A stretch of DNA of 64,000 bases from Leucoraja erinacea. Taxonomy: Eukaryota. Position 1 is the stretch's first letter. Each line of letters starts with the position of its first letter. The notes beneath the pieces are model-generated. The model was given only the letters and a program-made list of their open reading frames with translations. It did no database searches and was not told the origin of the DNA. Made by a program: the position numbers and the translations under genes. Below, one piece after another: positions 10,031-48,817 of this stretch. The stretch spans positions 28,024,001 to 28,088,000 of the forward strand of contig NC_073407.1 of assembly GCF_028641065.1 (NCBI RefSeq). Reading direction: 5' to 3'.

Positions 10031-10039
10031 AACAGCCAC

Positions 10040-10105: not shown

Positions 10106-10154
10106 ATGGCGGGCGCGGTGCGGACGTTGTGGGCCCGAACTTACCCGCGCTCCG
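10106..10154 (+). CDS. COQ4: COQ4 exon 1 (transit peptide); alternative same-phase donor at 10184
   Basis: [16 protein letters not shown], Arg-rich; donor G/GTATGG, phase 1 as exon 2 requires. Confidence 0.75.
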
Positions 10155-13100
10155 GTATGGTGAAGATCCCGGCGCCCGGCACAGGTACACGGCCCCCGGC
10201 ACAGGTACACGGCCCCGGCACAGGTACACGGGCCCGCACCACACCCCCCCCCCCCCCCGGCACAGGTACACGGCCCCGGCACAGGTACACGGGCCCCGGC
10301 ACAGGTACACGGGCCCGCACACACCCCCCCCCCCCCGGCACAGGTACACGGCCCCGGCACAGGTACACGGGCCCCCCCCGCACCCCCCCCCAGGCACAGG
10401 TACCGGGCCCCGGCACAGGTACACGGCGGACACAGGTACCGGGCCCCGCCACCAGGGCCCCGCACAGGTACACGGGCCCGCACACACCCCCCCCCCGGCA
10501 CAGGTACACGGGCCCGGCACAGGTACACGGCCCCGGCACAGGTACACGGGCCCCGCACAGGTACACGGGCCCGCACACACCCCCCCCCCCCGGCACAGGT
10601 ACACGGCCCCGGCACAGGTACACGGGCCCCGCGCCCCCCCCCCCCGCACAGGTACACGGGCCCCGCGCCCCCCCCCGGCACAGGTACACGGCCCCCGGCA
10701 CCCCACACGGGTACACGGGGCCCGCACAGGTACACGGGCCCGCACACACCCCCCCCCCCGGCACAGGTACACGGCCCCGGCACAGGTACACGGGCCCCGG
10801 CACAGGTACACGGGGCCCGCACAGGTACACGGGCCCGCCACACCCCCCCCCGGCACAGGTACACCCCCCCCGGCACAGGTACACGGCCCCGCACAGGTAC
10901 ACGGCCCCGCACAGGTACACGGGGCCGGCACAGGTACACGGGCCCCGCCACCCACCCCCCCCCCCGGCACAGGTACACGGGCCCCCCCCCCCCCGGCCCG
11001 GTACCCCCCCCCGCCCACGGGCCCCCCCCCCCCGGCACAGGTACACGGGCCCCCGCCCCCCCCCCCCCCCGGCACAGGTACACGGGCCCCGCCCCGCCCC
11101 CCACAGGTACACGGGGCCCGCCCACGCCCGGTACAGGTACACGGGCCCCCCCCCCCCCCCCCGGCACAGGTACACGGCCCCGCCCCCCCCCCCCGGCACA
11201 GGTACACGGGCCCGGCACAGGTACACGGGCCCCCCCCCGGCCCAGGTACACGGGCCGGGCCCCCCCCCCGCACAGGTACACGGGCCCCCCCCCCCCCCCC
11301 GGCACAGGTACACGGGCCCGCCCCGCCCCCCCCGCACAGGTACACGGGCCCGCCCCGCCCCCCCCCCCGGCACAGGTACACGGCCCCACGGGCCCCGGCA
11401 CAGGTACACGGGCCCGCACAGGTACACGGGCCCCCCCCCGGCACAGGTACACGGGGCCCCGCCCCCCCCCCCCCCGCACAGGTACACGGGCCCCCGCCCC
11501 CCCCCCCCGGCACAGGTACACGGGCCCCCCCGCCCCCCCGGCACAGGTACACGGGGCCCCGCCCCCCCCCCCCCAGGGTACACGGGGCCCCGCCCCCCCC
11601 CGGCACAGGTACACGGGGCCCCCCCCCCCCCCCCGGCACAGGTACACGGGCCCCGCCCCCCCCCGGCACAGGTACACGGGCCCCCCCCCCACAGGTACCA
11701 CAGGTACACGGGCACAGGTACCACCGGCCCCCCCCCCCCCCGGGCACAGGTACACGGGCCCCGCCCCCCCGGCACAGGTACACGGGCCCGCCCCCCCCCC
11801 CGGCACAGGTACACGGGCCCGGCCCCGCCCCCCCCCCCGGCACAGGTACACGGCCCCGGCACAGGTACACGGGCCCCGCCACAGGTACCGGGGCCCGCAC
11901 AGGTACACGGGGGCCGCCCGCCCCCCCCGGCACAGGTACACGGGCCCGCCCCGCCCCCCCCCGGCACAGGTACACGGGCCCCGCCCCCCCCCCCCCCGGC
12001 ACAGGTACACGGCCCCCGGCACAGGTACACGGCCCCGGCACAGGTACACGGGCCCCGCACAGGTACACGGGGCCCGCACAGGCACAGGGCACGGGCCCGC
12101 CCCCCCCCCCCGGCACAGGTACACGGGCCCCCCCCCCCCCCCACACAGGTACACGGGGCCCCGCCCCCCCCCCCGCCACAGGTACACGGGCCCGCCCACC
12201 CCCCCCCCCCGGCACAGGTACACGGGCCCGCCCCCCCCCCGGCACAGGTACACGGGCCCGCCCCCGCCCCCCGCACAGGTACACGGGCCCGCCCCCCCCC
12301 CACAGGTACACGGGGCCCGCCCCCCCCCCCCCGGCACAGGTACACGGGCCCGCACCCCCCCCCCCCGGCACAGGTACACGGCCCCGCCCCCCCCGCACAG
12401 GTACACGGGCCCGCCCCCCCCCCCAGGCACAGGTACACGGGCCCCGCCCCCCCCCCCACAGGTACACGGGCCCAGGTACACGGGCCCCCCCCCCCCCGCA
12501 CAGGTACACGGGCCCCGCCCCCCCCCCCGCACAGGTACACGGGCCCCGCCCGCCCCCCCCCCGCACAGGTACACGGGCCCGCACAGGTACACGGCCCCGC
12601 CCCCCCCCCCCCCCCCCCGCACAGGTACACGGGCCCCGCCCCCCCCGCACAGGTACACGGGCCCGCCCCCCCCCCCCGGCACAGGTACACGGGCCCCGCC
12701 CCCCCCCGCACAGGTACACGGGCCCCCCCCCCCCGCACAGGTACACGGGCCCCGCCCCCCCCGCACAGGTACACGGCCCCCGCCCCCCCCGCACAGGTAC
12801 ACGGGCCCCGCCCCGCACAGGTACACGGGCCCCGCCCCCGCACAGGTACACGGGCCCCGACCCCCCGGCACAGGTACACGGGCCCCCCCCCGCACAGGTA
12901 CACGGGCCCCCCCCCCCGGCACAGGTACACGGCCCCCGCCCCCCGCACAGGTACACGGCCCCCCCCCCCCCCCACAGGTACACGGCCCCCCCCCCCGGCA
13001 CAGGTACACGGAGGTACACGGGCCCCCCGCCCCCCCCGGCACAGGTACACGGGCCCCGCCCCCCCCCCGGCACAGGTACACGGGCCCGCCCCCCCCCCCG

Positions 13101-16100
13101 GCACAGGTACACGGGCCCCGCCCCCCCCCCGGCACAGGTACACGGGCCCCGCGCCCCCCCCCGGCACAGGTACACGGGCCCCCCCCCCCCGCACAGGTAC
13201 ACGGGCCCCGCTCCCCCCCCGGCACAGGTACACGGGCCCCGCCCCCCCGGCACAGGTACACGCCCCCCCCCCGGCACAGGTACACGGGCCCCGCCCCCCC
13301 CCGGCACAGGTACACGCCCCCCCCCCCCGGCACAGGTACGCGGGCCCCGCCTCCCCCCCCCCCCGGCACAGGTACATGGGCCCCCCCCCGGCACAGGTAC
13401 ACGGGCCCCCGCACCCCCCGGCACAGGTACACGGGGCCCCGCCCCCCCGTACAGGTACACGGCCCCGCACAGGTACACGGGCCCCGCCCCCCCGGTACAG
13501 GTACACGGCCCCGCCCCCCCCATGCATAAGTACACCCTCCTCTCACACAGCCCACCATCACCTGTAACTCACCCCCCTTTCACCTCGTCCATCACCGCTC
13601 TTCGCCACCTCACTCAACTCACCTTCACTCCCCCACCCTCACTTCCTTTTCTCACTCACTCACTCACCCACCCACTATCCCACTCACTCACTCACTCACT
13701 CACTCACTCACTCACTCACTCACTCACTCACTCACTCACTCACCCCACCTCACTCCTCACTGGAAGCAACCAGTGATAGACGGGTTTTTATGTGTTAAAG
13801 GCATCAGGTGACACAGGAAGTTGTACAAACAGATGGGCCATGACCTTATTAACCAAAGGATAATCCCAGCAGGCTGAATGCTGCTGATATTCACCCATCC
13901 TCAGTTTCCCCAACGCCCATCCCTCTTTGAAGCCCATATTGCTGCTTTGGTTTCTGAGCTCCCTGCATCTTGTGACAGGCACCAGTAATGCTGTGCTACA
14001 GACAGTCCGTGCGGCTAGTATGGACACGGTTACTGAAGATGGATATTGCAGCATCTACCACACACACATTCCCACCAACTCTCTGCAAAAAGCCCTGCTA
14101 GCGGCCGGCTCAGCATTCATGTCTCTGTACGACCCATACCGTCATGGTGAGTACATGCCTCTATTACTCTCATCATGCCCGCCCTTTAATGAAAGCCTCA
14201 TTGCAGCTTGTATTGCCTCTCCATTGATCATTGCCTGCCTTGTTTGATGCTCATCAGCCCATGCCCAGGCTGTTTCTAGATCATGTATGTCGGCACATGC
14301 CATTGGACGGTGGTGAACGGTGTTACTCTCTCTGATTCTCCTGCTATCTGTGTCCTGTGGCTGCCATTGGCCAGCTTGACCAGCCGGGGGTATATGTGGG
14401 TACTGGTGTATATGTGGGTACTGGTGTATATGTGGGTACTGGTGTATATGTGGGTACTGGGGTATATGTGGGGGTATATGTGGGTACTGGTGTATATGTG
14501 GGTACTGGTGTATATGTGGGTACTGGGGTATATGTGGGGGTATATGTGGGTACTGGTGTATATGTGGGTACTGGTGTATATGTGGGTACTGGGGTATATG
14601 TGGGGGTATATGTGGGTAATGGGGTATATATGGATACTGGGGTATATGTGGGTACTGGGGTATATGTGGGTACTGGGTATATGTGGGTACTGGGGTATAT
14701 GTGGGGGTATATGTGGATACTGGGGTATATGTGGGTACTGGGGTATATGTGGGGGGGTATATGTGGGTACTGGGGTATATGTGGGTACTGGGGTATATGT
14801 GGGGGTATATGTGGGTACTGGTGTATATGTGGGTACTGGGGTATATGTGGGTACTGGGGTATATGTGGGTACTGGGGTATATGTGGATACTGGGGTATAT
14901 GTGGGTACTGGGGTATATGTGGGGGTATATGTGGATACTGGTGTATATGTGGGTACTGGGGTATATGTGGGTACTGGGGTATATGTGGGTACTGGTGTAT
15001 ATGTGGGTACTGGGGTATATGTGGGTACTGGTGTATATGTGGGTACTGGGGTATATGTGGGTACTGGGGTATATGTGGGTACTGGTGTATATGTGGGGGT
15101 ATATGTGGATACTGGTGTATATGTCGGTACTGGGGTATATGTGGATACTGGGGTATATGTGGGTACTGGGGTATATGTGGGTACTGGGGTATATGTGGAT
15201 ACTGGGGTATATGTGGGGGTATATGTGGATACTGGTGTATATGTGGGGGTATATGTGGATACTGGTGTATATGTCGGTACTGGGGTATATGTGGGTACTG
15301 GTGTATATGTGGGTACTGGGGTATATGTCGGTACTGGGGTATATGTGGATACTGGGGTATATGTGGGTACTGGTGTATATGTGGTGGGTACTGGGGTATA
15401 TGTGGATACTGGTGTATATGTGGGTACTGGGGTATATGTGGATACTGGTGTATATGTGGGTACTGGGGTATATGTGGGTACTGGGGTATATGTGGGTACT
15501 GGGGTATATGTGGATACTGGGGTATATGTGGGTACTGGGGTATATGTGGGTACTGGGGTATATGTGGGTACTGGGGTATATGTGGATACTGGTGTATATG
15601 TGGGTACTGGGGTATATGTGGGTACTGGTGTATATGTGGGTACTGGTGTATATGTGGGTACTGGGGTATATGTGGGCACTGGGGTATATGTGGGGGTATA
15701 TGTGGGTAATTGCTCCCAATATTCCAAAAGCAGCCTGCCCAGCACCTTTTAGAGCCTCATCACCATCTTCTCACGGGCAGAGTGATGGGCAGGACATGCC
15801 AACATTGCCAGCTCTGCCCCGTCCTGAATAACCAGAAGTAATCCTCACCCTCTGTCGCTGTGTGGTAGTTGTTGACAACCCCTTTAATGGGATGTCCACT
15901 TTGTTGAGCTTAACGTGCTCTCGTGTTATAGATATGGTGGCCGTCTTGGCAGAAACGACGGGCCAGTTGGCAGTGCGTACACTCAGGGACAGGATGAGAA
16001 ACGATGTGGAGGGACACCGCATCCTGCAGTAAGTGTGGTGAGTGTGAGTGTGGCTGTGCGTGTGAGTGTGGCCATGGTGTGCGTGTAAGTGTGAGTGGCT

Positions 16101-19100
16101 GTGCTGTAAGTGTGAGTGTGTCCGTGGTGTGAGTGCGAGTGTGGCCGTGGTGTGAGTGTGTCCGTGGTGTGAGTGTAAGTGTGAGTGGCCATGGTGTAAG
16201 TGTGAGTGTGGCTGTGCTGTAAGTGTGAGTGTGGCTGTGCTGTAAGTGTGAGTGTGTCCGTGGTGTGAGTGTGTCCGTGGTGTGAGTGTGTCCATGGTGT
16301 GAGTGGCCATGGTGTGAGTGTGTCCATGGTGTGAGTGTAAGTGTGAGTGGCCATGGTGTAAGTGTGAGTGTGGCTGTGCTGTAAGTGTGAGTGTGGCTGT
16401 GCTGTAAGTGTGAGTGTGTCCGTGGTGTGAGTGTGTCCGTGGTGTGAGTGTGAGTGGCCATGGTGTAGTGTGAGTGTGAGTGTGTCCGTGGTGTGAGTGT
16501 GTCCGTGGTGTGAGTGTGTCCATGGTGTGAGTGTAGGTGTGAGTGGCCATGGTGTAAGTGTGAGTGTGTCCGTGGTGTGAGTGTGTCCGTGGTGTGAGTG
16601 TGTCCGTGGTGTGAGTGTGTCCGTGGTGTGAGTGTGTCCGTGGTGTGAGTGTGAGTGGCCATGGTGTAAGTGTGAGTGTGTCCGTGGTGTGAGTGTGTCC
16701 GTGGTGTGAGTGTGTCCGTGGTGTGAGTGTGGCCATGGTGTGAGTGTGAGTGTGAGTGGCCATGGTGTAAGTGTGAGTGTGAGTGTGGCCATGGTGTGAG
16801 TGTGTGTGAGTGTGAGTGAGTGTGGCCGTGCTGTAAGAGAGTGTCATCTGTGTGGAACCTCTCGATGCCAATGTAGCACTTTAACAGGTTTTAGTGCCTG
16901 CTGCTATGCGTGCTGTGATTGTGCTCCTGGTGTTGGTTTTACAGGGAGAGACCACGCATCAACTCATCTACTCTGGATCTCACTGGCCTGAGGGAGCTGC
17001 CTGAGGGAACGTTTGGCAGAGAATACATCCGCTTCCTTGATGTCAACGTGAGTTTAATCCGTGTTCACCAACCACAATCATCCTGGAGCAGCAGGACTTT
17101 GACATTTTAATCCGAGCAGATTCTTGCCTTGCGCGCAAGGTGTATTTGTTGGCAAGTGTTGGAGTAACTCAGCGGGTCATCTTGAGCAGCAACATTCCTG
17201 TGCCATGGACCCAACAAACCCTGCAATTAGCTGGCAGGAAGCAGAGACCAAAGGGCACTGGGTTTGTTGGTGTGTGGGGCAGAGAGGCAGAGGTGTGTGG
17301 GGCAGAGGGGCAGGCACTAGCCTAGTCCCCCAGCTGTTGCTTAGTGATTACTGAGAGCTGGAGGCACCTGGTCATCGACATGGACAAGGGAGGTTTGTGC
17401 TGAACTTGTCGGCTGCACTAGTTGACTACTTGTGCTTGTACGTGGCTGTACTCGCCGGCTGTACATGTGCATCTTGACCGATACTGGCACTTCCCATTGC
17501 TGGGATCTTTGACAATCGTCCAGGTCTGTGTGCATTGGCCATGTGTTTCTTCATTGAAGTAGTCTCTTGTCTTGATCTGTCAACAAAAATATAGTTGCTC
17601 CAGCTGAAGTTGTCCCACCTCCAGAAATTGTGACCTTCCCCAGAACCTCAGCGTGTGATGGTGGAGAGGCCAGATGCAGGGATCTGTGCAAATGGAACTG
17701 CAGATGCTGCTTTAAACCAAAGAAAGACACAAAAAACTGGAGTAACTCAGCGGGTCAGGCAGTATCTCTGGAGAGAAGAAAGGGGTGATGTTTCAGGTTG
17801 GGACCCTTCCTCAGACTGAAGAAGGATCTCAACCTGAAAAGCCACCCATTCCTTCTCTCCAGAAATGCTGCCTGTCCCGCTGAGTTACTCCAGCATTTTG
17901 TGTCTATCTTAGGTGCAGGGGTCTCCTGGATGGTGGCGTGACCAGGTGTAGGGGTCTCTTGGGTGTTGGAGTGTCCAGGTGTTGGAGTGAACAGGTGTCG
18001 GAGTGACCAGGTGTAGGGAACTCCTGGATAAGCGATAGAGGGGTAGGTAGGGGATCATAAACATTGCTCCACCAACAACCCAAAATCAAAGTCACATGAT
18101 TAAAAACTATGCATTTCCTTTATAAAACAGAGTTCATGCGCAGTTAGAATGTTTTACAATCTAACATGACCCCCTTGTGCTGGATGGGCAAGGACCAGAG
18201 ACACTGCCACGTTGGGCAAGGATATCTGTTGTGCAGAGATGAATGTGGGGGTGAGGCTGCTCCCAGGTTAAGAGGAAATTTATGAATGAATTATTTTAAT
18301 ACTATAAGTAAAAATTGATTCCGTTTTGAGGCCGCAAATGCTGTAAGCAAAGATTTGATATCAGGATCTCGTTCCCGGGGTGAAGCACAGTGTAGAACCA
18401 TGCGGTTCGTGTAATGAGTCCCAGATGCAGGAACTAGGGGAGATTGTTGAAAACATTGATGGAACAATTACAAGCTGCAGCAAAGGGTGTGTCGTGTATC
18501 TGTGTGGCCTGTGTATCTGTGTGGCCTGTGTATCTGTGTGGCCTGTGTATCTGTGTGTATCAGTGTGTATCGGTGTGACCTGTGTATCAGTGTGTATCGG
18601 TGTGACCTGTGTATCAGTATGTATCGGTGTGACCTGTGTATCAGTGTGTATCTGTGTGCATCTGTGGCCTGTGTATCTGTGTGGCCTGTGTATCTGTGTG
18701 TATCAGTGTGTATCGGTGTGACCTGTGTATCAGTATGTATCGGTGTGACCTGTGTATCTGTGTGTATCTGTGTGGCCTGTGTATCTGTGTGGCCTGTGTA
18801 TCTGTGTGGCCTGTGTATCTGTGTGTATCAGTGTGTATCGGTGTGACCTGTGTATCAGTATGTATCGGTGTCACCTGTGTATCAGTGTGTATCTGTGTGC
18901 ATCTGTGGCCTGTGTATCTGTGGTGCCTGTGTAGCTGTGTGGCCTGTGTAGCTGTGTGGCCTGTGTATCTGTGTGGCCTGTGTATCTGTGTGGCCTGTGT
19001 ATCTGTGTGGCCTGTGTAGCTGTGTGGCCTGTGTATCTGTGTGGCCTGTGTATATGTGTGGCCTGTGTATCTGTGTGGCCTGTGTATCTGTGCGGTCTCT

Positions 19101-22100
19101 GTAATTAAATATGAATGACGCCTGCCCAAAGGGTGTGTCACATGAATTATCTGTGACAAATGTCACTTGGACATGTGGTGATTAGAGTTTATGTGCGGCA
19201 TGCAGAGGTGACACGTGCCTGATGAGGGGGCACAGATTGATCGGTCCCTTGTGTCTACAGCGAGTTACTCCTGACAGCCGTATGCCGGTGAGGTTTGTGG
19301 ATGAGGAGGAGCTGGCGTATGTGATCCAGCGGTACCGTGAAGTACACGACTTCATGCACACACTGCTGGGAATGCCCACCAACATTCTTGGTAAGTCCAC
19401 TCACGGGGCAGTGTATGTGTTGGCTTGTGGATGGAATGGGTGACCTTCAGGTGAGCTACCTGTGTATACCTGTCTACCTCTCCTTGTGGGTGACCTTCAG
19501 GAGAGTGTAGGACGGAACTGCAGATGCTGGTTTAAACTGAAGATAGACACAAGATGCTGGAGTAACTCAGCGGGACAGGCAGTATCTCTGAAGAGAAGGA
19601 ATGGGTCACATTTCGGGTTGAGACCCTTCTTCAGACGGAATAAAGGTCTCAACCCAAAATGTCACCCATTTCTTCTCTCCAGAGATGTTGCCTGTTCCGC
19701 TAAGTTACTCCAGCATTTTGTGTCTACCTTCAGGTGAGTTACCTGTGTATACCTCTCCTTGTGGGTCGAGTAGGTGATCTTTAGCTGAATTCATGTTAAT
19801 AAGTGATAGGAGCAGAATTAGGCCATTTGGCCCATCAAGTCTACTCTACCATTCAATCATGGCTGATCTATCTTCCCCCCCATAACCCCTGACACCCGTA
19901 CTAATCAAGAATCTATCTATCTCTGCCTTAAAAATATCCATGGACTTGGCAGTGCATACCTGTCCACCTCTCCTTGTGGGTGGAGTAGGTGACCTACCAA
20001 TTGAATTACCTGTGTCCCTCTCTCCGTGTGGATAGATTAGGTGATGTATTTACCTGCGCATACTTGTCTCCTATCTACCTCTCCTTGCTATTTATTTGGG
20101 AAATACCAGTCTCAGACCTCTGACCCAATGACACATTTCTGCTAAGGACCAGGCTTCTGGGTTGCAATGTAGTTCAGGCAGTTGGGTACCCTCACCTCTC
20201 TACTTCCTACACCAGACGAATGTGGTTAGTTTTTGGGGGGGGGGGGTCATTCAAGGCTTCAGCCAAGGACGAGTAGAACTCCTTTTAAAGTTTGAGTGTA
20301 CCAGATGGATATTGACTCCAACAAACGCACGTGGTCCACCGTGGATTAAGAAACTGTGAAAGAATATTAATAACCTCTCATCGGGCATGGTGAATTTTTG
20401 GGGGTAATTATTGAAACACAACAGGGCCAGGAGGTGTGAGAAAGATTCACAGCAGCATTAGCCTTGCAGTGCACAGGAAGCGAAAGTCAGACAAAACAAA
20501 GATGGAATGAAGTAGAATTGAAACTTGAGGTTAGGCACAGGACAGTAAATGTTCCGATAATCCAGGGAAGAACATGAGCAGCGTCATCTTCCCATGTACG
20601 TCACCAAAGTGAAACTAACAGAATCTACCGCAATGGGAATAGTTGCAGGTGATCTATCGCCAGAGACAGACAAGGTCCGGCCCAACTGATGAGTTGAGCA
20701 GGGACTCCATAGCCTTTCTGAGGTTAGTGGACATGGGCAGTAGCTGTAATAATGGACTGGAGTATTGTGGTGCTCAGCAAGGAGCTGACAACTTCAGCAA
20801 CTGTGTTGCAGCCTGGAGAAGCCCATGTGAACACAACTGGGGAGCTGGCTGCCCTTTCACTGGTTGGGTGGAGGCGATGGATAACTGTGAGAGGATGAGG
20901 TGCAGGGAGTGATGTTGGGGAATGGCTGAGAGAGCTGGCATTGAGTATCAGTCATGTTGCTGCTTTATAGGTCGTCCCATTGCAGGAAGGATGTGGAGGA
21001 TTTGGAGAGGTTTACCAGAATGTTACCGGGAGTAGAGGGGACAAACTTTGAACATGGAATGTACTCCTTGGCAATAAGAGAGCTGAGAACGTGACCCTCT
21101 GGTGGTAATGGGGCAGCAACAAGATAGGGCATGGTAAATCACCTTGGGGCCGACCTATCCCACTTCACAGTGGCCCAGTGCCCAAAACCCTCCAGCTCAG
21201 AGTGTAATCAGTTAGTTTGGGCAATGTAAGAAACATGGCTACATCTGTGGGGTTGGGAGGAGGCTGTGGCCAGGTGTGTTGTGGGAGCACTAACATGTGT
21301 GTTTCTCCACATTGAACAGGTGAGGTTGCTGTCAAGTGGTTTGAGGCGGTCCAGACTGGCCTGCCCATGTGTGTTCTGGGAGCGGTGTTCGGTCCACTCC
21401 GTGTGTCCACCAGGTAAACACTCCTCTCCTGCATCGCCATCCCACTGAGATCTCTAGATAGGAAATTACTTGTGAGAATCTTGCCTTCGTTTCCCTGAAG
21501 ATATTCTGAATAATATGCGCAGATATACGTGGTCATTTATAATACGTGCCATTATTCACTGAAATCCCATCACAAAGGCATGATACCAGTTTTCCTTTAT
21601 GTATATTTCTTGAACATAGCGTGACGTCACCTGTTCCTTCTCTCCAGAGATGCTGCCTGTCCCACTGAGTTAATCCAGCTTTTTGTGTCTATCTTTGGTT
21701 TAAACCAGCATCTGCAGTTCCTTCCTACACATTTCCCTGTGAAACATCACTGGTCACAGTGTCTATCTTGTTTCACAGGGATCAGTGTTGGTGCCTCAGC
21801 TGTTCGTGATTTATATATAAATTACTTGTAGACACAAGGAACTGCTGATTTACAAAAATAAACAAAGTGCTTGAGTAACATGTTCTCCACAGATGCTGCC
21901 TGACCTGCTGAGTTACTCCAGCACTCTGTGAAACGTCACCTATCCATGTTCTCCACAGATGCTGCCTGACCCGCTGAGTTACTCCAGCACTGTCTTTTTA
22001 TAGTGCAAATGTAGGTGGGTTGGTTACTAACTTTACAGACAATGAGGAAGACTATTAAAGGACACAGCAAGTTCTGGATTGTTTGTAAAGATGGGCAGAG

Positions 22101-29600: not shown

Positions 29601-32162
29601 AAACTCCAAGGCAGACAAAAATGCTGGAGAAACTCAGCGGGTGAGGCAGCATCTATGGAGCGAAGGAAATAGGCAACATTTCGGGCCAGCATCTGTAGTT
29701 CCTTCTTAAACATTAAACACTCCAATACCGCAGACACCCAAACCTGGAATTAAACACAATACATCAGACTCCCAAAGCCAGCATTGACCAATACTGCAGT
29801 GTGTGTCCCTCTACCCAGCACTTAACTCCAACACTACAGCATATCAGTTCTCATGGACAACATTGGTTCCCCCCCCCTCCCTCTCCAGAGGCCCTCCCTT
29901 GCCCCTTACCCCGTGGGTGGTTGGCCAGGGCAGGCAGCTGTGCGACAGTCAGGTTGGTTTCTGTGCCACTTATACCCTGGCTGGTGGTCGGCAGAAAGCG
30001 GATCTGATCGTGTGGAAGTGGACATTCCGACGCGTTGAGGTCTGGCGATGGAATGAAAGGATGAGACTTGTCACTAGTTCCCACCTGGATCACGCATGAG
30101 CACGGAAGACTCATCATAGTGTGATCACCCCCAGCTAATGGAGTTACCACTTGCAGCAAACTGTGGGCTCGATCTACAGGTTCCCCCTGCATCAACATTC
30201 CTCAGCGCCGTTTACTTGACCAAGGTTGACCAAGGGAAGCAGGGCAAACAATGCAGTTACCACATACAATGTAAATATTTTATGTCTAGTGGCATAATGA
30301 TCCCACAAGGGTTGGTGTGAGAGGAGGCTCCGTGTCACAGATCAGTATCCAGCGATCAGCATCGGATGCTTGGGCCCAGTAGGGACAGGATGGGGGGGGT
30401 GGGGTTATGGCGGGGGGGGGCTAGTGAAGGGGAGCGGAAGAGGGGGGGGGGCGTTGGTTTGGAGGGGGGGGGCGTTGGTTTGGAGGGGGGCTGATGGTGA
30501 GCTGGGTGATGGTTGGGGTTATATTGAGGGGGGGGGGGGGGGGGGTTATAGTGAGGGGGGGGGGGGGTTATAGGGTGATTTCACTAAAGGTCACTGGAGC
30601 GTAGATCCGCACCCACGTGACCAAAATTCTCAAGTGGAGGACACTCGAGGGTTCGGTACATGTTAGTGGATGGGAAAAAACGCATTTTCCCACCCGTTAA
30701 AAACATAGAAAACGGCGAGGTTGTGAGCTGCAATTTACTGTGCCAGTCGGGGTGACCGTGAGGCACAGCTACCTAGATTTACAGGGGGAAAAAAAGATAG
30801 CAAGTAAGGTAAATTCAAGAGGGAACTGAAGGTACCAAACCGACGGAAATGAACAGCCGACATTTGCCGTGGATATTTAAAGGTCCAAAATATCGGGAAT
30901 TATCGCGTTTGCTCGCTGAATTTCATCAAAAGTAAGGCATTATTAACTTACCTTTGATAAATTCAGCGAGCAAACGCGATAATTCCCGATATTTTGGCGG
31001 GGGTTGTGGTTGGGGGTCACCAACCGAGGCACGGGAGCCGGGGGTCAGGGGGCGTGTGTCCGGGGTCAGGGCCGGAGACTCACCGCGGACCAGGCCGGTC
31101 TCCACCGTGAGCCGGGGGTCAGCGGTCAGGGCTGGGGGTCAGGGGTCGGGGACCCACCATGCACCAGGCCGGTCTCCACCGTGTGCGGGGGGGTCAGGGG
31201 TGGGGGTCAGGGACCCACCATGCACCAGGCCGGTCTCCACCGTGTGCCGGGGGGTCAGGGGGTGGGGGTCAGGGGTCGGGGACCCACCATGCACCAGGCC
31301 GGTCTCCACCGCGTGCCGGGGGTCAGGGGCCGGGGGTCAGGGGCCGGAGACCCACCGTGCACCAGGCCGGTCTCCACCGTGTGCCGGGGGGTCAGGGGTC
31401 AGGGGTCAGGGCCGGGGGGGGTCAGGGGTCGGGGACCCACCGTGCACCAGGCCGGTCTCCACCGTGTGCCGGGGGGTCAGGGGTCGGGGGTCAGGGACCC
31501 ACCGTGCACCAGGCCGGTCTCCACCGTGTGCCGGGGGTCAGGGGTCAGGGGGTCGGGGCCGGGGGGGTCAGGGGTCGGGGACCCACCGTGCACCAGGCCG
31601 GTCTCCACCGCGTGCCGGGGGTCAGGGGTCGGGGTCGGGGGGCGTGTGCCGGGGCCGGGGGTCAGGGGGCGTGGGTCCGGGGCCGGGGGTCCAGGGTGCA
31701 CACCGCGTGCCGGGGGTCAGGGGTCAGGGCGGGGTCAGGGCCGGGGGGGTCAGGGGTCGGGGACCCACCGTGCGTGCCGGTCCACCGGGTCCGGGGGGGG
31801 CAGGGGCCGGGGGGTCAGGGGTCGGGGACCCACCGTGCACCAGGCCGGTCTCCACCGCGTGCCGGGGGTCAGGGGACCAGGGACCCACCATGCCGGTCTC
31901 CACCGCGTGCCGGGGGTCAGGGGGCCGGGGGTCAGGGGGTCAGGGGTCGGGGCCGGGGGTCAGGGGTCGGGGACCCACCATGCACCAGGCCGGTCTCCAC
32001 CGCGTGCCGGGGGGTCAGGGGTCAGGGGTCGGGGCCGGGGGGGTCAGGGGTCGGGGACCCACCGTGCACCAGGCCGGTCTCCACCGCGTGCCGGACGCTT
32101 CGCCAGTTGACGGCGGGCGGTTTGTAAACGGCGAAGATGCCGCGGAGGGAGCGCGCCGCCAT
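23310..32162 (-). CDS. TRUB2: Mitochondrial pseudouridine synthase TRUB2 (~318 aa)
   Basis: Exons 32162-32063, 30041-29910, 29469-29395, 27109-27048, 26065-25984, 24896-24824, 24592-24456, 23605-23310 (957 nt, in frame). Motifs GIFAVYKPP, GHRLD (catalytic Asp), GRLIEKTTYDH, IHEIGLELKSSAVCTSVRRTRDG. Confidence 0.96.
23893..24385. repeat. 33-bp minisatellite GCAGTACAGGTGATCAGACACTAGTGTGTCAGT
   Basis: Direct observation. Confidence 0.93.
24456..24592 (-). CDS. TRUB2: TRUB2 exon 7
   Basis: YSGIDLKSQAAYELACRGMLRPLHKSPPIITGIRCSQFSLPNFTL. Confidence 0.94.
24824..24896 (-). CDS. TRUB2: TRUB2 exon 6
   Basis: (D)HITLDRLERIIAVIQGSHQKALI. Confidence 0.94.
24955..25450. repeat. Tandem repeat with core CACAGCCTGCAGTGTTACAGT, interrupted by an 83-bp retro-insertion
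   Basis: Direct observation. Confidence 0.88.
25984..26065 (-). CDS. TRUB2: TRUB2 exon 5
   Basis: EYTVHGSFGTATEDFSDTGRLIEKTTY. Confidence 0.94.
26305..26680 (-). mobile_element. CR1 RT fragment
   Basis: SKFVDDTKVGGIVDS...KCKVLHFG. Confidence 0.85.
27048..27109 (-). CDS. TRUB2: TRUB2 exon 4
   Basis: (V)LAVGSGNKQLSYLQDCHLTK. Confidence 0.92.
27775..28280 (+). mobile_element. Rex1/Babar-like LINE 3' fragment
   Basis: SIYTSRCLGKASSIIKDKSHPGHSLFASLPSGKRCRSVKTHTSR; tail GACAATAAACTAAA. Confidence 0.8.
28662..28955 (-). mobile_element. Rex1/Babar-like LINE 3' fragment
   Basis: RRVKSHTSRFRDSFF; tail GACAATAAACTTACTAAACT. Confidence 0.7.
29395..29469 (-). CDS. TRUB2: TRUB2 exon 3
   Basis: (V)RGPKFVGLRIGAGHRLDWRSSGVF. 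Confidence 0.93.
29910..30041 (-). CDS. TRUB2: TRUB2 exon 2
   Basis: (D)LNASECPLPHDQIRFLP...LPALANHPR. Confidence 0.9.
30571..30997. mobile_element. Probable non-autonomous DNA-transposon fragment ending in a fold-back
   Basis: Sharply bounded AT-richer, CpG-retaining block between G-rich tracts; 39-bp perfect inverted repeat at its end. Confidence 0.45.
31035..32062. repeat. Minisatellite made of TRUB2 exon-1 3' end plus donor copies separated by GGGGTCA spacers
   Basis: About 12 copies of GACCCACCRTGCACCAGGCCGGTCTCCACCGYGTGCCGG. Confidence 0.95.
32063..32162 (-). CDS. TRUB2: TRUB2 exon 1
   Basis: MAARSLRGIFAVYKPPAVNWRSVRHAVETGLVH; donor G/GTGGGT. Confidence 0.92.
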
Positions 32163-33219: not shown

Positions 33220-33690
33220 ACCATATAACAATCACAGCACGGAAACAGGCCATCTCGACCCTTCTTGTCCGTGCCGAACACGTATTCTCTCCTAGTCCCA
33301 TATACCTGCGCACTTTCCCGTCCATATAACTATCCAATTTATTTTTAAATGATAAAACGAACCTGCCTCCACCACATCCACTTGAAGCTCATTCCACACA
33401 GCCACCACTCTCTGAGTAAAGAAGTTCCCCCTCATGTTACCCCTAAACTTATGTCCCTTAATTCTCAAGTCATGTCCTCTTGTTTGAATCTTCCCTATTC
33501 TCAATGGGAAAAGCTTATCCACGTCAACTCTGTCTATCCCTCTCATCATTTTAAAGACCTCTATCAAGTCCCCCCCCCCACCCTTAACCTTCTGCGCTCC
33601 AAAGAATAAAGCCCTAACTTGTTCAACCTTTCTCTGTAACTTAGTTGTTGAAACCCAGGCAACATTCTAGTAAATCTCCTCTGTACTCTC
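33220..33690 (-). mobile_element. CR1 LINE 3' end
   Basis: [12 protein letters not shown]...TRGHDLRIKG..FFTQRVVAVWNEL. Confidence 0.88.
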
Positions 33691-33759
33691 TCTCTCTCTC
33701 TCACACAGACCATTGTGAAGCAAGGACTCAGACGCACAGACTCTTTATCACGGAGATGT

Positions 33760-33765
33760 TTTATT
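33760..33765 (-). terminator. Polyadenylation signal of the MAMDC4-like gene
   Basis: AATAAA on the minus strand downstream of the TM/cytoplasmic exon. Confidence 0.65.
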
Positions 33766-34132
33766 GAAGAGCGGACATGAATCGTTCCAGCGAGGGTCAC
33801 TATGGATCAGCCACACCGAAGCCCCGGACCGTCTCCACCGGCACCGTGTCCTGTGTGTGACCGACAACAGCAGCTCAGTTCCAGTCGGTGCAGAGAGGGG
33901 CGAGCGGACACTGGGACTCAGTCTGTGTACCTGCACCCCGACCGCTCACCACATCCCAGCCACACGTCCACGTGCCAACCCCACCCTCCACCACCCCTCC
34001 CTCCCTCCATCCCTCCCTCATCCATCCCTTCATCCTCTCCTCTCCTCCCCCCCCGCCTTCTTACGGCTTGGTCCCTCGCTCCTCACCCTCCCTTCCACCC
34101 CCCCCCCCCCCCCCCCCCCCCGGGCCCCGTTG

Positions 34133-34320
34133 TCACAGTACCTTGTTACGGTTTCGGTAGCTGATATTGTCAAAGCCGAAGGTTGCCCGAAACTCGTTCA
34201 GGCTCCGACCGAAGCCGGCGCTCCTGTTTTTGTACCAGTACATTGTGGCCACAGCGAGACCCATCAGCAGAAGCACAAGAAGGATCCCAGCAACAACGAT
34301 TCCAGCAGTGTTGCCCGCAC
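34133..34320 (-). CDS. MAMDC4: TM plus cytoplasmic exon (stop at 34133, or spliced at donor 34142 to a short last exon)
   Basis: Hydrophobic helix, then FGFDNISYRNRNK. Confidence 0.85.
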
Positions 34321-37300
34321 CTGTCATCACACACACACACACCAGTCAGCACAAACTCCCCAGACAGGGGACGGGGGGGGGGGGGGGGGGGGGGGGACAG
34401 TGAGAGGTGGGGGAGAGATGTTTCAGTTAGACAGACAACCACTGGTAAAGCCATGGCTCGTGAGTTCCGCGGGCGCAAGGAACAAATGACCTAAAGTTTG
34501 CGTTGAGTGAACACTGGCGTTTTGTGAGAGTGTTTGGATCCCGGGATCCAGAGAGGGGTCAACGGCCGACAGGTGAACGGCCCGCAGTAACTAGTGCCTC
34601 TGTCGCCGCTGGAAGAACTGACACCTCTACTCCCCGGGTCGGGCGCTGCCTCCTCGATCCCGCTGCTCGGCGGCGGCAGACTAGGATTCCAGAGCATCAC
34701 CGATGCCTCACCTCAGCCCCTCGTCCCCCGCCTCCTGTCCGGATAACGTGACCGACGTTGGCTGAGCTGAAGTTGGGATCCACCCACTCACAAAACCCGG
34801 TGTACGGCGAGGACTCAGTTCACTCAACGCAAACTTGAGGTAATTTGTTCCTCCCCGCTCCCATCCATCCCAACCACAGCGCAAAAGTCTAATGTGTAGG
34901 AGGTGTGAAGGAGGCTTCTATCCAGAGGTCCGCGGACGGGAATGTCGGCCCCAGCTCGACTCTGCCTGTCCTGTCGAGTAACTCCAGCGTTTTGTGCCGA
35001 CCTTCGCTGGTCCTGAGTTGGGCTGGAGAGGGAATGGGATGAAACACCACGTACCCCCGACAGCCTGGTCCGTGTTCACGCCGAAACAGTTGACGCCAGG
35101 CCGGTAATCCACGTCGTCAATGGCGATGTACCCCGTCTCCCTAGCATTCGATTTTATCACCAGAAACCCAACCTGAGTGGGACACAGCCGTCAACATCAC
35201 ACAGCCTCCCCCCATCCACCCACGCACCTCCCCTCCCCCCATCCACCTCCCCCCACCCACCCCCCCACCTCCCCTCCCCCCACGCACCTCCCCTCCCCCC
35301 CACCCACCCACCCCCCTCCCCCCCCCCCCCCCCCACCTCCCCCTCCCCCCCCCCCCCCCACCCACGCACCTCCCCTCCCCCCACCCACCTCCTCCACCTC
35401 CCCCCCATCCACTTCCCCCCCACCTCCCCACTCCCCACGCACCTCCCCTCCACCCAACCCCCTCCCCACCTCCTCTACCCCCACCCCCCCTCCTCTCCCC
35501 CCCCCCCACCCCTCACTCCCCACCCACCCCCTATCCTCCCCCTCTCCTCAGGGTCACGCCCCCCCGGAGGTGGGGTGGGGGTGAAAGGACGTGACCAGTG
35601 CTGACCTGGAAGGACTCTGCGCTCGCCACAGTTAGGTTCACTCCCCGCCACTGGTCGTTCGCTCCATGTTTGGCCTCCCACAGGGTCGTTTCCTGGTCGG
35701 CGACCAACTGGAAAAACTTCAGTGGCCCTTGCGCTGCAGGCAAAGCACACGGGACTGTCGACGCGGGTCACACACGGGACCGTCCACGCGGGTCACACAC
35801 GGGACCGTCCACGCGAGACCGTTCACGCGGGTCACACACGGGACCGTCCACGCGGGTCACACACGGGACCGTCCACGCGGGACCGTTCACGCGGGTCACA
35901 CACGGGACTGTCCACGCGGGTCACACACGGGACTGTCCACGCGGGTCACACACGGGACTGTCCACGCGGGTCACACATACCGCACTATCCACGCATGGTG
36001 TGGGAGGGGTCGGGGTCGGGTTAGGGGTCAGAATGGGGGGTCGGTCATTAATTGGCCTGGAGCCGGATTCAGCCCAACAGGGGCCGGTCAGGGCCGGAGA
36101 GAAGAAACTGGTCACTTGTGGTGTGACCAATCTGCTGATGGGTCAAAGGAGTGTTGGGCAGGATGACCAGTGGGAGTCCGAGCTGGGATTACGGTGCAAA
36201 CTATTTGTCCAAATCCAACCAGTCCTCATCACGAGGCAGGTGAGCACATGGGAATAAATGGGAACGGTCCAAGAGCAAAACCTGCGACTCATTCACTGAG
36301 GTCAGGATTGTGTGCTGGCGGCTCGACCCCGGACAGCGCTGACCACAACCAGACTGGGCAGCGTGGCGGCCCCAAAACCACAGCCGGACCAACTACGGCC
36401 GGACCAACTTGGAGGGAGGGGGTGAGGGTGGAGGGTGAGGGTGGAGGGTGTGAGGGCGGAGGAGGGAGGGGGGTGGGGGTCTCACCGAGCTGCTGGGGTA
36501 TCTTGGTGCGATAGTAGAAGGTGAGGCAGGAGCCCTTGGTGGGCGGCAGGTGTTCACTGAGGAGACGAGCGGTGTCTTCGACGCTGACCGTCGCCATGTC
36601 CACAAACACAGAGTGACCTGTAGAGAGAGGAGGTCCTTCATTCACATAGAACCCCCGTGCCCTTTGACCCCGCGCCATCCGACTGACACCACGACAGCGG
36701 TCAGAGGTTGTTCAGTCAGGCCGAGGGAACGGTGTCCGCCGGACTGGTCACTGTGTACCTCCGGCCACTGGCCACACGAAGGAGCTGGGATCCGGTGCCC
36801 CGCCTGACCCCCAGAGAGGTGGGAACAGGGGGGGGGAGATGGGGAGAGAGATACTCTCCCACTGCCCCTCCCGACCCGATCAGACTGACCCCTGACCTGG
36901 TCACAGTGGGCCAGCCCCACCTGCTTATTGCCAGTTTTTCTGCTGAGTCGGCCCGAGTTTGGCCACTGACCAGTGCGTGAGGCAGGGTGCCCACCCACCT
37001 TCAGGGGTGCCCAGGGTGTGGTCAGTGGCCGGAGTCTTGTAGTGACCGGGCACCGAGCTGCTGCTCCAGTTCCAGTCCACGGTGTCCATCTCGTTCAGAA
37101 CGTTCCTCCAGCCACACAGTCCGGCCTCAAAGTCACAGGTACCTGGAGAGAGAGGGGGAGGGTCACTGACCAGTGTCTCCCCACCCATCCCCCATCCATT
37201 CATCCCCCCACCCACTCACCTGGCACCTTCCCCCCACCCATCCTCCACCCACACCTGTGTCAGGGGGTCGGAGGGTGTGGGGGTCAGTGGTTGGGGTCAC

Positions 37301-38278
37301 TCACCCGGACGCGGACACCGCGAGGGTTCCAATACGAGGTCGTCGATCGCGATGTACGAGGAGGAAGCTCCGCCTCCGGCCGCTTCAAACACCAGCTGCA
37401 GGGACAGAGTATTGGTCAGCACTGGTGACTGGCAGTGACCCAGTGCCCCGCCCCCCCAGTGACCCCCGCCCCCAGTGACCCAGTGACCCCCGCCCCCAGT
37501 GACCCAGTGACCCCCGCCCCCCAGTGACCCAGTGACCCCCGCCCCCAGTGACCCCCGCCCCCAGTGACCCAGTGACCCCCGCCCCAGTGACCCCCGCCCC
37601 CAGTGACCCCCGCCCCCAGTGACCCCCCCCCCAGCCCCCCCCAGTGACCCAGTGACCCCCGCCCCAGTGACCCCCGCCCCCAGTGACCCCCGCCCCCAGT
37701 GACCCCCGCCCCCAGTGACCCAGTGACCCCCGCCCCAGTGACCCCCGCCCCCAGTGACCCCCGCCCCCAGTGACCCCCGCCCCCAGTGACCCAGTGACCC
37801 CCGCCCCAGTGACCCCCGCGCCCCCAGTGACCCCCGCCCCCAGTGACCCCCGCCCCCCAGTGACCCCCGCCCCCAGTGACCCAGTGACCCCCGCCCCCAG
37901 TGACCCCCGCCCCCAGTGACCCCCAGTCGGTGGAGGTGCCGGTCAGTTACCCTCCAGACATGTGCACCCCACTCTGGCCAGATCATGATGCATGGGGGTC
38001 GTGTGAAGGGGAGGGGGAGGGGCGGTGTGGCGCTACCGGTCAGTTACCCTCCAGTCGTGTGTCGTGTGCACCCCCACTCTGGCCAGGGTCCACGTCTGGA
38101 GCGGGCCAGTGTCCAGGGTCCAGACCAGACGCTTCGTCTGCAAGTCTTCCTCCATGTAGACGTCCAGCGAACCTGTTGGAGCAAGAACCGGAACATTCCG
38201 TATATGGGGAGGGGTCTGTACACAGGGGGTGGGGTCTGTACACAGGGGGAGGGGTCTGTACACAGGGGGAGGGGTCTG

Positions 38279-38314
<36 letters not shown>

Positions 38315-41300
38315 GGAGCTTCAACCTGATCTAACCTTATCTGTGACGGGTCAGATAAGGGGGAGGTTTAGTTTCTCAAACCTGTACTCACGGTGGGGGG
38401 GGCAGAATGACCAGGGGGTTACCTGGGGACAGGTGGGTGGGGGTCAGGCCGTTACCTGGGCTGTCGGCACAGGTGTGGGCACGGACATGCAGCAGGTGGT
38501 GGGGGTGGGGGGAATAGGGAGGGTGAGGGGGGGGACAAGGGCAGTGGGGGGTTCAGGGAAACACAGAGAAACAGTTGCAGGAGCAGGCCACTCGGCCCTT
38601 CGAGCCAGCACCACCATTCAATATGATCATGGCTGGTCATCTAAAATCAATACCACGTTCCAGCTTTCTCCCCATACCCCTTGATTCCTTTAGCCCAAAT
38701 AACTAAATCTAACTCCCTCTTGAAACCATCCAGTGAATTGGCCTCCACTGCCGTCTGTGGCAGAGAATTCCACAGATTCACAACTGTCTGGGTGAAAACG
38801 TTTTTCCTCATCTCGGTCCCAAATGGCCTCCCCTTTATTCCTAAACTGTGACCCCTGGTTCTCGACTCCCCCAACATGGGGAACATGTTTCCTGCATCTA
38901 CCCTGTCGAATCCTTTAAGAATTTTACATGTTTCTATAAGATCACATCTCATCAATCAATCAATCAATCAGTTTTATTCGTCAACCTTCAAAATTGCCTT
39001 ATCTCAAATCCTCTCACAATGAAGGTCAACATGCCATTAGCTTTCTTCACTGCTTACCGTACCTGCTTGCTTACTTTCATTGACTGGTGTACAAGCACAC
39101 CCAGGTCTCATTGCACCTCCCTTTTCCTAATCTGACACCATTCAGACAATAATCTGCCTTCCTAACGTCACATTTATCCACATTATACTGCATCACCCAA
39201 CCTATCCCAGTCACTCTGCAGCCTCATAGCGTCCTCATCACAGCTCACACTGCTTTGTGTCATCCGTACACTTGGAGATGTTACATTTAATTCCCTTGTT
39301 AATACAGTGCCCTCCATAATGTTTGGGACAAAGACCCATCATTTATTTGTTTGCCTCTGTACTCCACAAGTTGAGATTTGTAATAGAAAAAAATCACATG
39401 TGGTTAAAGTGCAGATTGTCAGATTTTTAATACATTTTGCTTGTCGGCGCTGGTGTGGGAGGGGCTGGGAAGGGGGGGCAGGGGGAGGGGGGTTCAGGTT
39501 GGGGGAGGGGAGGGGGGTTACCTGGGCTGTCGGCACTGGTGTGGGAGCAGCTGGGATGGGGGGGCAGGGGGAGGGGGGTTCAGGTTGGGGGAGGGGAGGG
39601 GGGTTACCTGGGCTGTCGGCGCTGGTGTGTACACGGAACTGTAGGCAGGCGATGTCCAGGGGGGGTGTTGGGTTTCTGACACCAGCTGCAGCCGCTGACT
39701 GGTGGGGAGTGGCCGGTGGCTGGTGTCGGCCAACATGTAGTGTCCTGCAGCAAATACCATCGGTCAGTCGTCTGCCCAGTGGGAACCCTGACCTCCGGGG
39801 CAATGGACCCGGCCCTGCCCCCCCCCCCCCCCCCCTAGCCCCCTCCCCCAAACCCCCCATGGCCCACCAAGGGCATGGAGTGGGGGAGCAGCAGGGAGCC
39901 ACCCTCTCCCTCTACACTGCCCCAGTGAGGTGCTGCCCCCTCCACACGGACATGGTACCGCCTGAGGCCGGCATGCACAGAGGTTCCCGACGAGGCTACA
40001 GCCCCCTCCCCCTCCTACCCCACCACCCCCCTCCCCTCCCACCCCACCACCCCCTCCCCTCCCACCCCACCACCCCCTCCCCTCTCCTACCCCACCACCC
40101 CCTGCGCTGGAGTAACTCAAGCAGCATCTCTGGAGAACATGGACAGGTGACATTTCAGGTCCTGAAGCAGTTACTCCAGCACTTTGTGCCATTTTTTGTA
40201 AACCAACATCTGCAGTTTCTTGTTTGTATATATTGTGTGCAGTGTCCACAGACCAGTGTGTACAGTGTCCCAGTGTTTGAGGCCAGTGTGTGCAGCGTCG
40301 CAGTGTGTGAGGCCAGTGTGTACAGTGTCCCAGTGTGTGAGGCCAGTGTGTGCAGCGTCGCAGTGTGTGGGGCCAGTGTGTACAGTGTCCCAGTGTGTGA
40401 TGCCAGTGTGTGCAGCGTCGCAGTGTGTGAGGCCAGTGTGTGCACTGTCCCAGTGTGCACAGTGTCCCAGTGTGTGTGGCCAGTGTGTGCACTGACCCAG
40501 TGTGTACAGTGTCCCAGTGTGTGCAGCGTCCCAGTGTGTGAGGCCAGTGTGTGCAGCGTCCCAGTGTGTGCAGCGTCCCAGTGTGTGAGGCCAGTGTGTG
40601 CAGCGTCCCAGTGTGTGAGGCCAGTGTGCGCAGTGTCCCAGTGTGCGAGGCCAGTGTGTGCACTGTCCCAGTGTGCGCAGTGTCCCAGTGTGCGCAGTGT
40701 CCCAGTGTGCGCAGTGTCCCAGTGTGTACAGTGGCCCAGTGTGGACAGTGGCCCAGTGTGTGCAGTGGCCCAGTGTGTGCAGTGTCCCAGTGTGTGAGGC
40801 CAGTGTGTACAGTGTCCCAGTGTGAGAGGCCAGTGTATGCAGTGTGCCAGTGTGTGCAGTGTCCCAGTGTGTACAGTGTCCCAGTGTGTGCAGTGTCACA
40901 GTGTGTGAGGCCAGTGTGTGCACTGTCCCAGTGTGTACAGTGTCCCAGTGTGTGCAGTGTCACAGTGTGTGAGGCCAGTGTGTACAGTGTCCCAGTGTGT
41001 ACAGTGTCCCAGTGCGTACAGTGTCCCAGTGTGTGAGGCCAGTGTGTACAGTGTCCCAGTGTGTGCACTGTCCCAGTGTGAGAGGCCAGTGTGCTCTGTT
41101 TGTGAGGGTGGTGCAGCGGTGAGGATGGGAAGGTTATGCTGACCTTGCTCTGTCCCCAGGGTGCTGTCGATGGGCGGCCGGTTCTTGGTTCTTGTCCCTG
41201 AGTCCCCGCTCTCCCGCTGCCAGGTCCGGGCTCCCGTCGATGTGAAGGAACAAGAGTCGGCTTCAAAGCTGCAGAACTGCTGTGGTTCACAACTCCCTCC

Positions 41301-48815: not shown

Positions 48816-48817
48816 CC

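Follow-up and report, generated by a model that had tools for sequence, protein, structure and literature searches.

The window analysed here, a 64,000-nt stretch of Leucoraja erinacea DNA, contains the genes COQ4, TRUB2, and MAMDC4, identified by matches to RefSeq skate proteins, which were also used to place the exon boundaries. The sample comprises 31 mapped introns; the introns of an SDR-family gene upstream of position 5158 were omitted, as were the MAMDC4 introns upstream of 44675, because the 5' gene model is doubtful there. Four introns, all within 30 kb, carry copies of their own exon-end/donor junction (COQ4 intron 1, TRUB2 intron 1, and two in MAMDC4; Table 1). The preliminary description had counted a fifth, COQ4 intron 3, which we ruled out as a junction copy: its array is GTGAGT-rich (49 GTGAGT and 14 GTAAGT hexamers), does not copy the 9-mer of the real donor, and repeats a single exon base. 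The five repeat units bear no relation to one another, and each is local.

Table 1 Coordinates of the exons, arrays, and junction copies in the window
Feature	Position	Strand	Remarks
SDR-family gene acceptor copy	5855..5897	+	Intron end and exon start, 82 nt upstream of the true 5963|5964
COQ4 exon 1, coding part	10106..10184	+	Ends at in vivo donor 10184|10185; minor upstream donor 10154
COQ4 intron 1 minisatellite	10170..13514	+	About 100 to 116 decoy donors, each AG|GT
18-nt AG|GT-bounded COQ4 unit	11404..11421	+	Encodes the six additional residues of RefSeq COQ4 isoform X1
Another 18-nt AG|GT-bounded COQ4 unit	12569-12586	+	
COQ4 intron 3 GTGAGT/GTAAGT-rich array	16038..16818	+	Starts 9 nt past the donor; donor-like hexamers
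TRUB2 intron 1 array	31062..32094	-	9-10 full copies and partial ones
TRUB2 exon 1, coding part	32063..32162	-	
Diverged copy, MAMDC4 exon 38172-38048 end and donor	37935..37985	-	One copy, at +97
Older diverged copy, MAMDC4 exon 39744-39608 end and donor	38420..38480	-	About 1.15 kb into the intron
MAMDC4 86-bp x2.2 duplication	39442..39629	-	Last 22 nt of exon 39744-39608 and donor

The repeat unit of COQ4 intron 1 consists of the last 10 to 15 nt of exon 1, the first 8 to 10 nt of the intron, and a variable C-run, with a spacing of mostly 18 to 37 nt, and the true donor lies in the first unit of the array. Allowing at most two mismatches, the junction 20-mer is copied 99 times in the intron; CAGGTAC occurs 117 times, the real donor's included. 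Intronic 9-mers identical to the donor (-3 to +6) number 109 in COQ4 intron 1, 6 in TRUB2 intron 1, and 2 and 1 at the two MAMDC4 sites. A dispersed element as carrier of the COQ4 unit was rejected, since no other part of the window contains its core. In an independent run, an 84-nt contig (X5) carries three COQ4 junction units similar to those of the window, and its first units differ from the window's array. RefSeq isoform X1 corresponds to exactly one added 18-nt unit (the first unit in the window is 20 nt), and isoform X3 takes the upstream donor.

The TRUB2 intron 1 unit (60 to 85 nt) combines the last 30 to 32 nt of exon 1, the donor, and a C-rich spacer. For the donor at 32063|32062 there are nine copies of the junction 20-mer and ten BLAST hits with up to 32 nt of the exon end. 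The units have structured variants in common, and the most distal one (approximately 31062 to 31110) is diverged and contains GTGAGT. Exon 1 of TRUB2 codes for His-Ala, matching the inner units; the Amblyraja exon codes for Leu-Thr, matching the distal unit. In MAMDC4, the donor at 39608|39607 is copied at +86 and again, in diverged form, at +1152, and the donor at 38048|38047 has a single junction copy.

Use of the donors at COQ4 was followed in raw RNA runs bearing the same species label. Of 50 reads crossing position 10184, 47 (94%) exit at the first copy and 3 continue past it; none of these 50 extends to 10198-10245. The loose RNA ends at 10184/10185 connect to exon 2 or exon 3. Position 10154 was ruled out as the main COQ4 donor, since it accounts for the ends of only about 2 of 52 reads, a use that fits isoform X3. 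At TRUB2 intron 1 and at both MAMDC4 sites the first donor is likewise used, according to RefSeq and Logan proteins rather than RNA reads. Normal splicing is therefore undisturbed by the arrays, as judged from RNA reads for COQ4 and from annotated proteins alone for TRUB2 and MAMDC4.

Tandem arrays are a general feature of these introns, and most are unrelated to any junction. As detected by TRF with parameters chosen here, they occur in 21 of the 31 introns, with a median cover of 34%, and make up 37% of intronic bases; among exonic 20-mers, 0.6% have a local copy. Donors with a local junction copy (4/31) were compared with collapsed-repeat intronic positions, the background adopted here, of which 5.7% to 6.8% have such a copy (P = 0.10 to 0.16). 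No acceptor is copied (0/31), or one at k = 16 (SDR 5963), and the difference between donors and acceptors is also not significant (Fisher P = 0.11 to 0.35). Arrays that span a junction number 3 of 21 versus 1.7 to 1.8 expected (P = 0.24 to 0.26). Against raw intronic 20-mers, 32% to 37% of which have a local copy, donors appear depleted (P about 0.01); we set this comparison aside as unfair because long arrays are counted many times over. The window was picked for showing the pattern, and 31 introns provide little power, even for a real 2- to 3-fold enrichment at donors. The proposal that duplication nucleates at 5' splice sites is thus not borne out by these counts, and the fallback offered with it, a by-product of general minisatellite richness, is the best fit to the repeat load of the introns. 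We found no report of genome-wide minisatellite enrichment at donors in the available portions of the literature.

The positions at which arrays begin show a weak, exploratory lean toward donors. Array starts lie no more than 25 nt from the donor in 8 of 21 introns versus 3.6 to 3.7 expected (P = 0.014 to 0.018, one of five thresholds tried) and within 25 nt of the acceptor in 1 of 21. With the three junction arrays removed, the donor-side count is 5 of 18 versus 2.1 expected (P = 0.046 under a simpler null), and the paired donor-acceptor distance gives P = 0.096. An initial placement null (P = 0.001 at 25 nt) was dropped because it took no account of arrays that start within the exon; once corrected, P is about 0.015. 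A pooled-intron null (P < 0.001) was dropped as too lax because acceptor-side counts exceed it too at 50 to 100 nt.

The preliminary description knew of no such system; however, at least three have been published, described here from the available text of each paper. Exon stuttering, which its authors found in birds and gerbils only, was described on chicken dot chromosomes (Hron et al. 2026, PMC12954441) as imperfect, local intron arrays of tens to hundreds of bases with intact coding sequences and extensive intron length variation among individuals. The skate introns are alike in being filled with tandem arrays, in that some of these copy the exon edge with its splice site, and in their intact coding sequence. 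In that study, repeats cover 7% to 93% of introns on dot chromosomes and nearly 0 on other chicken chromosomes. Its screen searches for a copy of the exon edge in the adjacent intron (blastn-short, at least 20 nt and at least 42.1 bits) and was positive for 190 of 5,572 dot introns, with 1 to 44 copies per array. Applied to the skate window, it returns 1 of 31 introns and only one of the four junction-copy sites, TRUB2 intron 1, where 10 of 10 hits reach at least 42.1 bits and the shuffled maximum is 16.4. The best hit in MAMDC4 intron 5 (36.2 bits) is below the cut-off, and COQ4 intron 1 and MAMDC4 intron 6 have no hit of at least 20 nt. The COQ4 array, with approximately 100 to 116 copies, exceeds the published range, but the stretch of exon that it repeats is too short for the screen to register.

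The skate case also differs from exon stuttering, as far as the available text of that paper describes it, in its host, a cartilaginous fish, and in its chromosome. The 28-Mb contig is a mesochromosome (PMC10115646) with interspersed repeats present (dispersed repeats make up 2,608 of 35,871 intronic bases), unlike the dot-chromosome-like euchromatin, free of interspersed repeats, that the chicken study associates with exon stuttering, although not among its three named features. The bird COQ4 contigs compared are mostly 10 to 17 Mb, which suggests a homolog other than a dot; the first part of the PMC12954441 supplement contains no text match to chr17, COQ4, TRUB2, MAMDC4, or PHPT1. In the portions of the literature available, we found no skate or shark report of such repeats.

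The other two systems are lancelet mirages and a human VNTR. Mirages, known from Adh3, the globins BflGb6/9, troponin C, and PGBD5, are minisatellite-like duplications of 5' or 3' exon-intron boundaries with units of 10 to 160 bp, 2 to 7 copies, and demonstrated length instability (PMC3087553, PMC3902484). Boundary-spanning units are likewise present at COQ4 intron 1, TRUB2 intron 1, and MAMDC4 39607, with single copies at MAMDC4 38047 and the SDR acceptor 5963. Skate and lancelet repeats also have in common several cases per locus, normal splicing, and outer units that escape homogenisation (compare the distal TRUB2 unit), whereas mirages, on the available text, occur in cephalochordates and have fewer copies. 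The 37-bp VNTR of human F7 intron 7 has 5 to 9 sites at one locus, and preferred use of its most upstream donor was demonstrated experimentally (Borensztajn et al. 2006, PMC1557585). As in the skate, the true donor lies in the first, boundary-spanning unit, identical pseudo-donors follow, and the most upstream donor is used; the skate, however, has four sites in 30 kb, one of them with more than 100 decoys and slight leakage. The skate repeats are likely of the same kind as vertebrate exon stuttering, lancelet mirages, and F7 IVS7.

We consider it likely that the four copied donors are a product of general, position-blind local tandem duplication, with donor-crossing duplications surviving; in the COQ4 RNA it is the first copy that is used. 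Such duplication would fill GC-rich introns with minisatellites: a segment of 18 to 90 bp would be duplicated by slippage or repair, then expand and homogenise through gene conversion or unequal exchange, with template-strand G4 motifs perhaps assisting. Duplications internal to exons would be purged, while those crossing a donor would leave the mRNA unchanged, apart from slight leakage into alternative isoforms, and probably persist because the donor lying furthest upstream prevails. Those crossing an acceptor would be less tolerated because they disturb the branch point, the pyrimidine tract, and the first AG; a mild donor excess would therefore arise without donor-specific mutation. Selection against acceptor-side arrays can explain the low acceptor count and leaves the donor excess over a uniform distribution unexplained. 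Each of the two largest arrays lies in the first intron of a CpG-island gene (CpG o/e 1.10 and 0.95), and position-blindness may therefore fail near promoters.

A tentative alternative, which we regard as unlikely, is a mutational bias of duplication toward donors and intron 5' ends, through transcription- or splicing-coupled breaks or G4 or hairpin stalling at GC-rich exon ends or promoters. The donor-side lean of array starts, which persists without the junction arrays, is in its favour, as are the four copied donors against at most one acceptor and the G4 motifs that the template strand carries in each of the four junction copies (40, 18, 4, and 1). However, junction copies are no more frequent than the collapsed background, the paired distances are not significant, five thresholds were tried in a window selected for the pattern, and donor and acceptor copies both occur in the available text of the chicken and lancelet papers. 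The RNA-like strand of all four junction copies is rich in C, and their G4 motifs are confined to the template strand. A C-rich RNA-like strand has the wrong polarity for co-transcriptional R-loops, so the R-loop process suggested earlier is a poor fit. It is doubtful that exon stuttering of the bird-dot type operates on mid-sized GC-rich chromosomes of skates and nucleates preferentially at the first bases of introns, with the exon end as a live unit, repeat turnover rewriting codons and donor strength, and AG|GT units escaping into transcripts as micro-exons or second donors (COQ4 X1).

It is very improbable that the decoy-donor arrays are retained for regulation, in which alternative donors, micro-exons, recursive splicing, or U1 loading would adjust how much COQ4 or TRUB2 is produced. 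Each COQ4 unit is indeed an AG|GT site, isoforms X1 and X3 use an added unit and the upstream donor, and a few reads pass the first donor; yet this donor takes nearly all crossing reads, the units are irregular and mutually unrelated, and an X1-like insertion is absent from the stingray and ray proteins compared. That the arrays are mainly assembly artefacts, with repeats collapsed, inflated, or mis-joined by noisy long reads at GC-rich junctions, has the least to recommend it: C-run lengths differ between units, and MAMDC4 exon 39744-39608 and PHPT1 exon 1 have apparent homopolymer frameshifts, so array copy numbers and phases are uncertain, but the units of contig X5, the shared structured variants of the TRUB2 units, and the unit in RefSeq X1 all argue against it.

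If position-blind duplication is the correct reading, exon stuttering, until now claimed in birds and gerbils only, reaches a cartilaginous fish and a chromosome unlike the dots of chicken, and the COQ4 array offers a natural experiment on how a 5' splice site is chosen among more than 100 identical decoys. A donor-side mutational bias, if true genome-wide, would connect the origin of repeats in the germline with splicing or early transcription, and would be a route by which introns grow, micro-exons arise, and codons at exon ends change. Stuttering that nucleates at intron starts in skates, if true, would be an ancient jawed-vertebrate process driving protein change at exon ends.

Four of the five introns said in the preliminary description to open with repeats holding the exon-intron junction or a donor motif (COQ4 intron 1, TRUB2 intron 1, and two in MAMDC4) do contain duplicates of their own exon end and donor, termed junction copies here. 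The exception is COQ4 intron 3, where examination of the array found no exon-end copy. An acceptor-side copy in the SDR-family gene had been absent from that account. The skate junction arrays are real and unusually dense. COQ4 intron 1 has 117 CAGGTAC cores (the real one counted) and 109 perfect matches to the donor 9-mer. COQ4-type units also occur, with another first spacing, on an 84-nt contig assembled from an independent run, and the COQ4 repeat is therefore not solely an assembly product. Exact copy numbers and phases are uncertain because C-run lengths vary and two apparent homopolymer frameshifts are present, both in exons and probably due to sequencing error. At the one in MAMDC4, the RefSeq gene model departs from Amblyraja.

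Junction copies, arrays, and neighboring features (window positions)
Feature	Position	Strand	Description
COQ4 intron 1 array	first unit = donor 10184/10185	+	3.3 kb; 99 junction 20-mer copies
COQ4 18-nt units	11404-11421, 12569-12586	+	AG/GT-bounded; equal the X1 insert
COQ4 intron 3 array	begins 9 nt into intron	+	GTGAGT/GTAAGT-rich
COQ4 intron 5	19430-19760	+	short local duplications with CAGGTGAG donor-like motifs, flanking a SINE-like insertion on both sides
TRUB2 intron 1 array		-	9-10 copies of donor plus last 30-32 exon bases
TRUB2 exon end	32063-32094	-	His-Ala, donor GTGGGT
TRUB2 distal unit	31062-31110	-	Leu-Thr, GTGAGT
MAMDC4 donor	39607	-	copies at +86 and +1152
MAMDC4 donor	38047	-	single copy at +97
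SDR acceptor 5963 copy	5855-5897 vs 5937-5979	+	3' splice site and exon start duplicated, 82 nt upstream of real acceptor
Arrays without exon copy (PHPT1 intron 1, MAMDC4, SDR intron 4)	59666-60024, 41437-41828, 7859-7976, 36410-36470		open 7-23 nt past donors
MAMDC4 exon	39744-39608	-	apparent frameshift at 39660-39690
PHPT1 exon 1	60100-60171	-	apparent frameshift
MAMDC4 5' side	44675-55700	-	gene seemingly short, with three Pfam MAM stretches
RefSeq MAMDC4 5' exons	48176-48090, 55685-55614	-	doubtful-looking
MAMDC4 region	around 46190-46250	-	signal-peptide-like frame
Minisatellite between MAMDC4 and PHPT1	48821-50090		22-bp unit, 53 copies, AT-richer
COQ4/TRUB2 stops	22843, 23310 (region 10106-32162)	+/-	genes tail to tail
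Assembly gaps	~1533-2370, ~47011-47178

The window has 53% GC and 27% tandem repeat. Exon translations of COQ4, TRUB2, and MAMDC4 are 100% identical to little skate (Leucoraja erinacea) RefSeq proteins, and Pfam domains include Coq4, TruB_N, and MAM, with an SDR gene on the left and an Ocnus/PHPT1-type gene on the right. COQ4 and TRUB2 are presumably arranged head to head in human. The analysis covered 31 GT-AG introns (SDR 4, COQ4 6, TRUB2 7, MAMDC4 12, PHPT1 2), taking MAMDC4 only from 44675 downstream and SDR only from 5158 downstream; the MAMDC4 intron numbering is our own.

Use of the COQ4 donors was examined in ~5% of two bulk RNA-seq runs, targeting 10030-10245. Among 52 reads, 42 are spliced from donor 10184 to exon 2 and five to exon 3, one extends to ~10189, two to ~10196, about two end near 10155, and none covers 10198-10245. 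The first donor is used by 47 of 50 crossing reads, in a sample where GC-rich and nonsense-decayed products are possibly under-represented. The shorter RefSeq isoform lacks 10 residues, consistent with donor 10154, and isoform X1 gains six. The X1 insert, in the N-terminal and likely mitochondrial targeting region, is a candidate micro-exon; alternatively, an allele whose first unit is 18 nt long may supply a second donor, and the pair of reads reaching ~10196 would be compatible with it. Exon 2 is skipped (10184 to 15932, +) in 5/35 reads of one RNA run, and Amblyraja COQ4 isoform X2 also lacks it. A synonymous G>T in COQ4 exon 1 (10174), at the margin of the array's first unit, is present in both RNA runs.

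At TRUB2 intron 1 and both MAMDC4 sites, the annotated proteins (RefSeq; Logan for the 38047 donor) follow the first donor. The TRUB2 exon end has the same residues and donor as the inner array units, and the residues of the distal unit are those of exon 1 in the Amblyraja protein. This comparison, which has a protein only on the Amblyraja side, suggests that the TRUB2 array is older than the Leucoraja-Amblyraja split and swaps sequence with the exon, possibly by conversion.

Tandem arrays are present in 21 of the 31 introns (median cover 0.34), and the raw background rate of local copies is 32% to 37% for intronic k-mers and 0.6% to 0.8% for exonic ones. Junction 20-mers are copied at 4/31 donors and 0/31 acceptors (1/31 with a 16-mer), a difference with P of 0.11-0.35; the comparison was repeated under five settings. 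With each array counted once, first units make up 5.7% to 6.8% of intronic positions and the donor P is 0.10-0.16. Under a placement null that permits starts inside exons, junction-spanning arrays number 3/21 versus 1.7 expected (P 0.24). Array starts lie within 25 nt of a donor in 8/21 cases versus 3.6 expected (P 0.014; 0.018 after masking dispersed repeats) and within 25 nt of an acceptor in 1/21. Thresholds of 10-100 nt give P of 0.01-0.03 and a paired donor-acceptor distance test gives 0.096, an exploratory lean given several thresholds, a window selected for the pattern, and 31 introns. This weak signal arises because of arrays starting shortly past the PHPT1 intron 1, MAMDC4, and SDR intron 4 donors. 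The collapsed-background, acceptor, and placement tests therefore leave the proposed donor preference in junction copying unproven, but a modest donor-proximal lean of array starts stays.

G4-related replication or repair stress may have contributed to the junction copies. A donor-specific mutational system, as originally proposed, appears unlikely. An R-loop origin, for which a G-rich transcript is expected, fits poorly, the RNA-like strand being C-rich at all four junction copies (G4 motifs 40, 18, 4, and 1 on the template versus 0 on the RNA-like strand); repeat blocks overall are C-skewed in 16/33 cases.

The preliminary description knew of no account of such a system, but the same kind is known as exon stuttering, in which some chicken dot-chromosome intron arrays copy exon edges (Hron et al. 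2026, PMC12954441), as lancelet mirages, and as the human F7 intron 7 VNTR (IVS7). When the exon-stuttering screen was run on the window introns, TRUB2 intron 1 alone passed; the locus shows two of the three named features, the remaining one being length polymorphism. No donor/acceptor breakdown was found in the available portions of Hron et al. Within the available portions of these reports, mirages have an identical anatomy at 5' and 3' boundaries (PMC3087553, PMC3902484), and F7 IVS7 provides a single-locus model (PMC1557585). The portions available likewise indicate that shorter shark chromosomes carry more GC and simple tandem repeats (PMC10620051), that a skate chromosome of 28 Mb is a mesochromosome (PMC10115646), and that bird dot introns are >70% tandem repeat and G4-rich (10.1101/2025.10.17.683159). 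A literature search, with most subscription papers outside its scope, found no report of skate junction arrays or of a genome-wide donor bias.

Repeat units are local and mutually unrelated, coding exons are nearly without local copies, and first donors are used. On this basis, short duplications would emerge throughout these GC-rich introns and then grow via unequal exchange or conversion. Selection would purge duplications within exons and tolerate donor-spanning ones because the upstream site wins, a priority demonstrated experimentally in F7 (PMC1557585), and acceptor copies would be tolerated less than donor copies. The skate arrays operate in the manner of exon stuttering, the lancelet mirages, and the human F7 VNTR.
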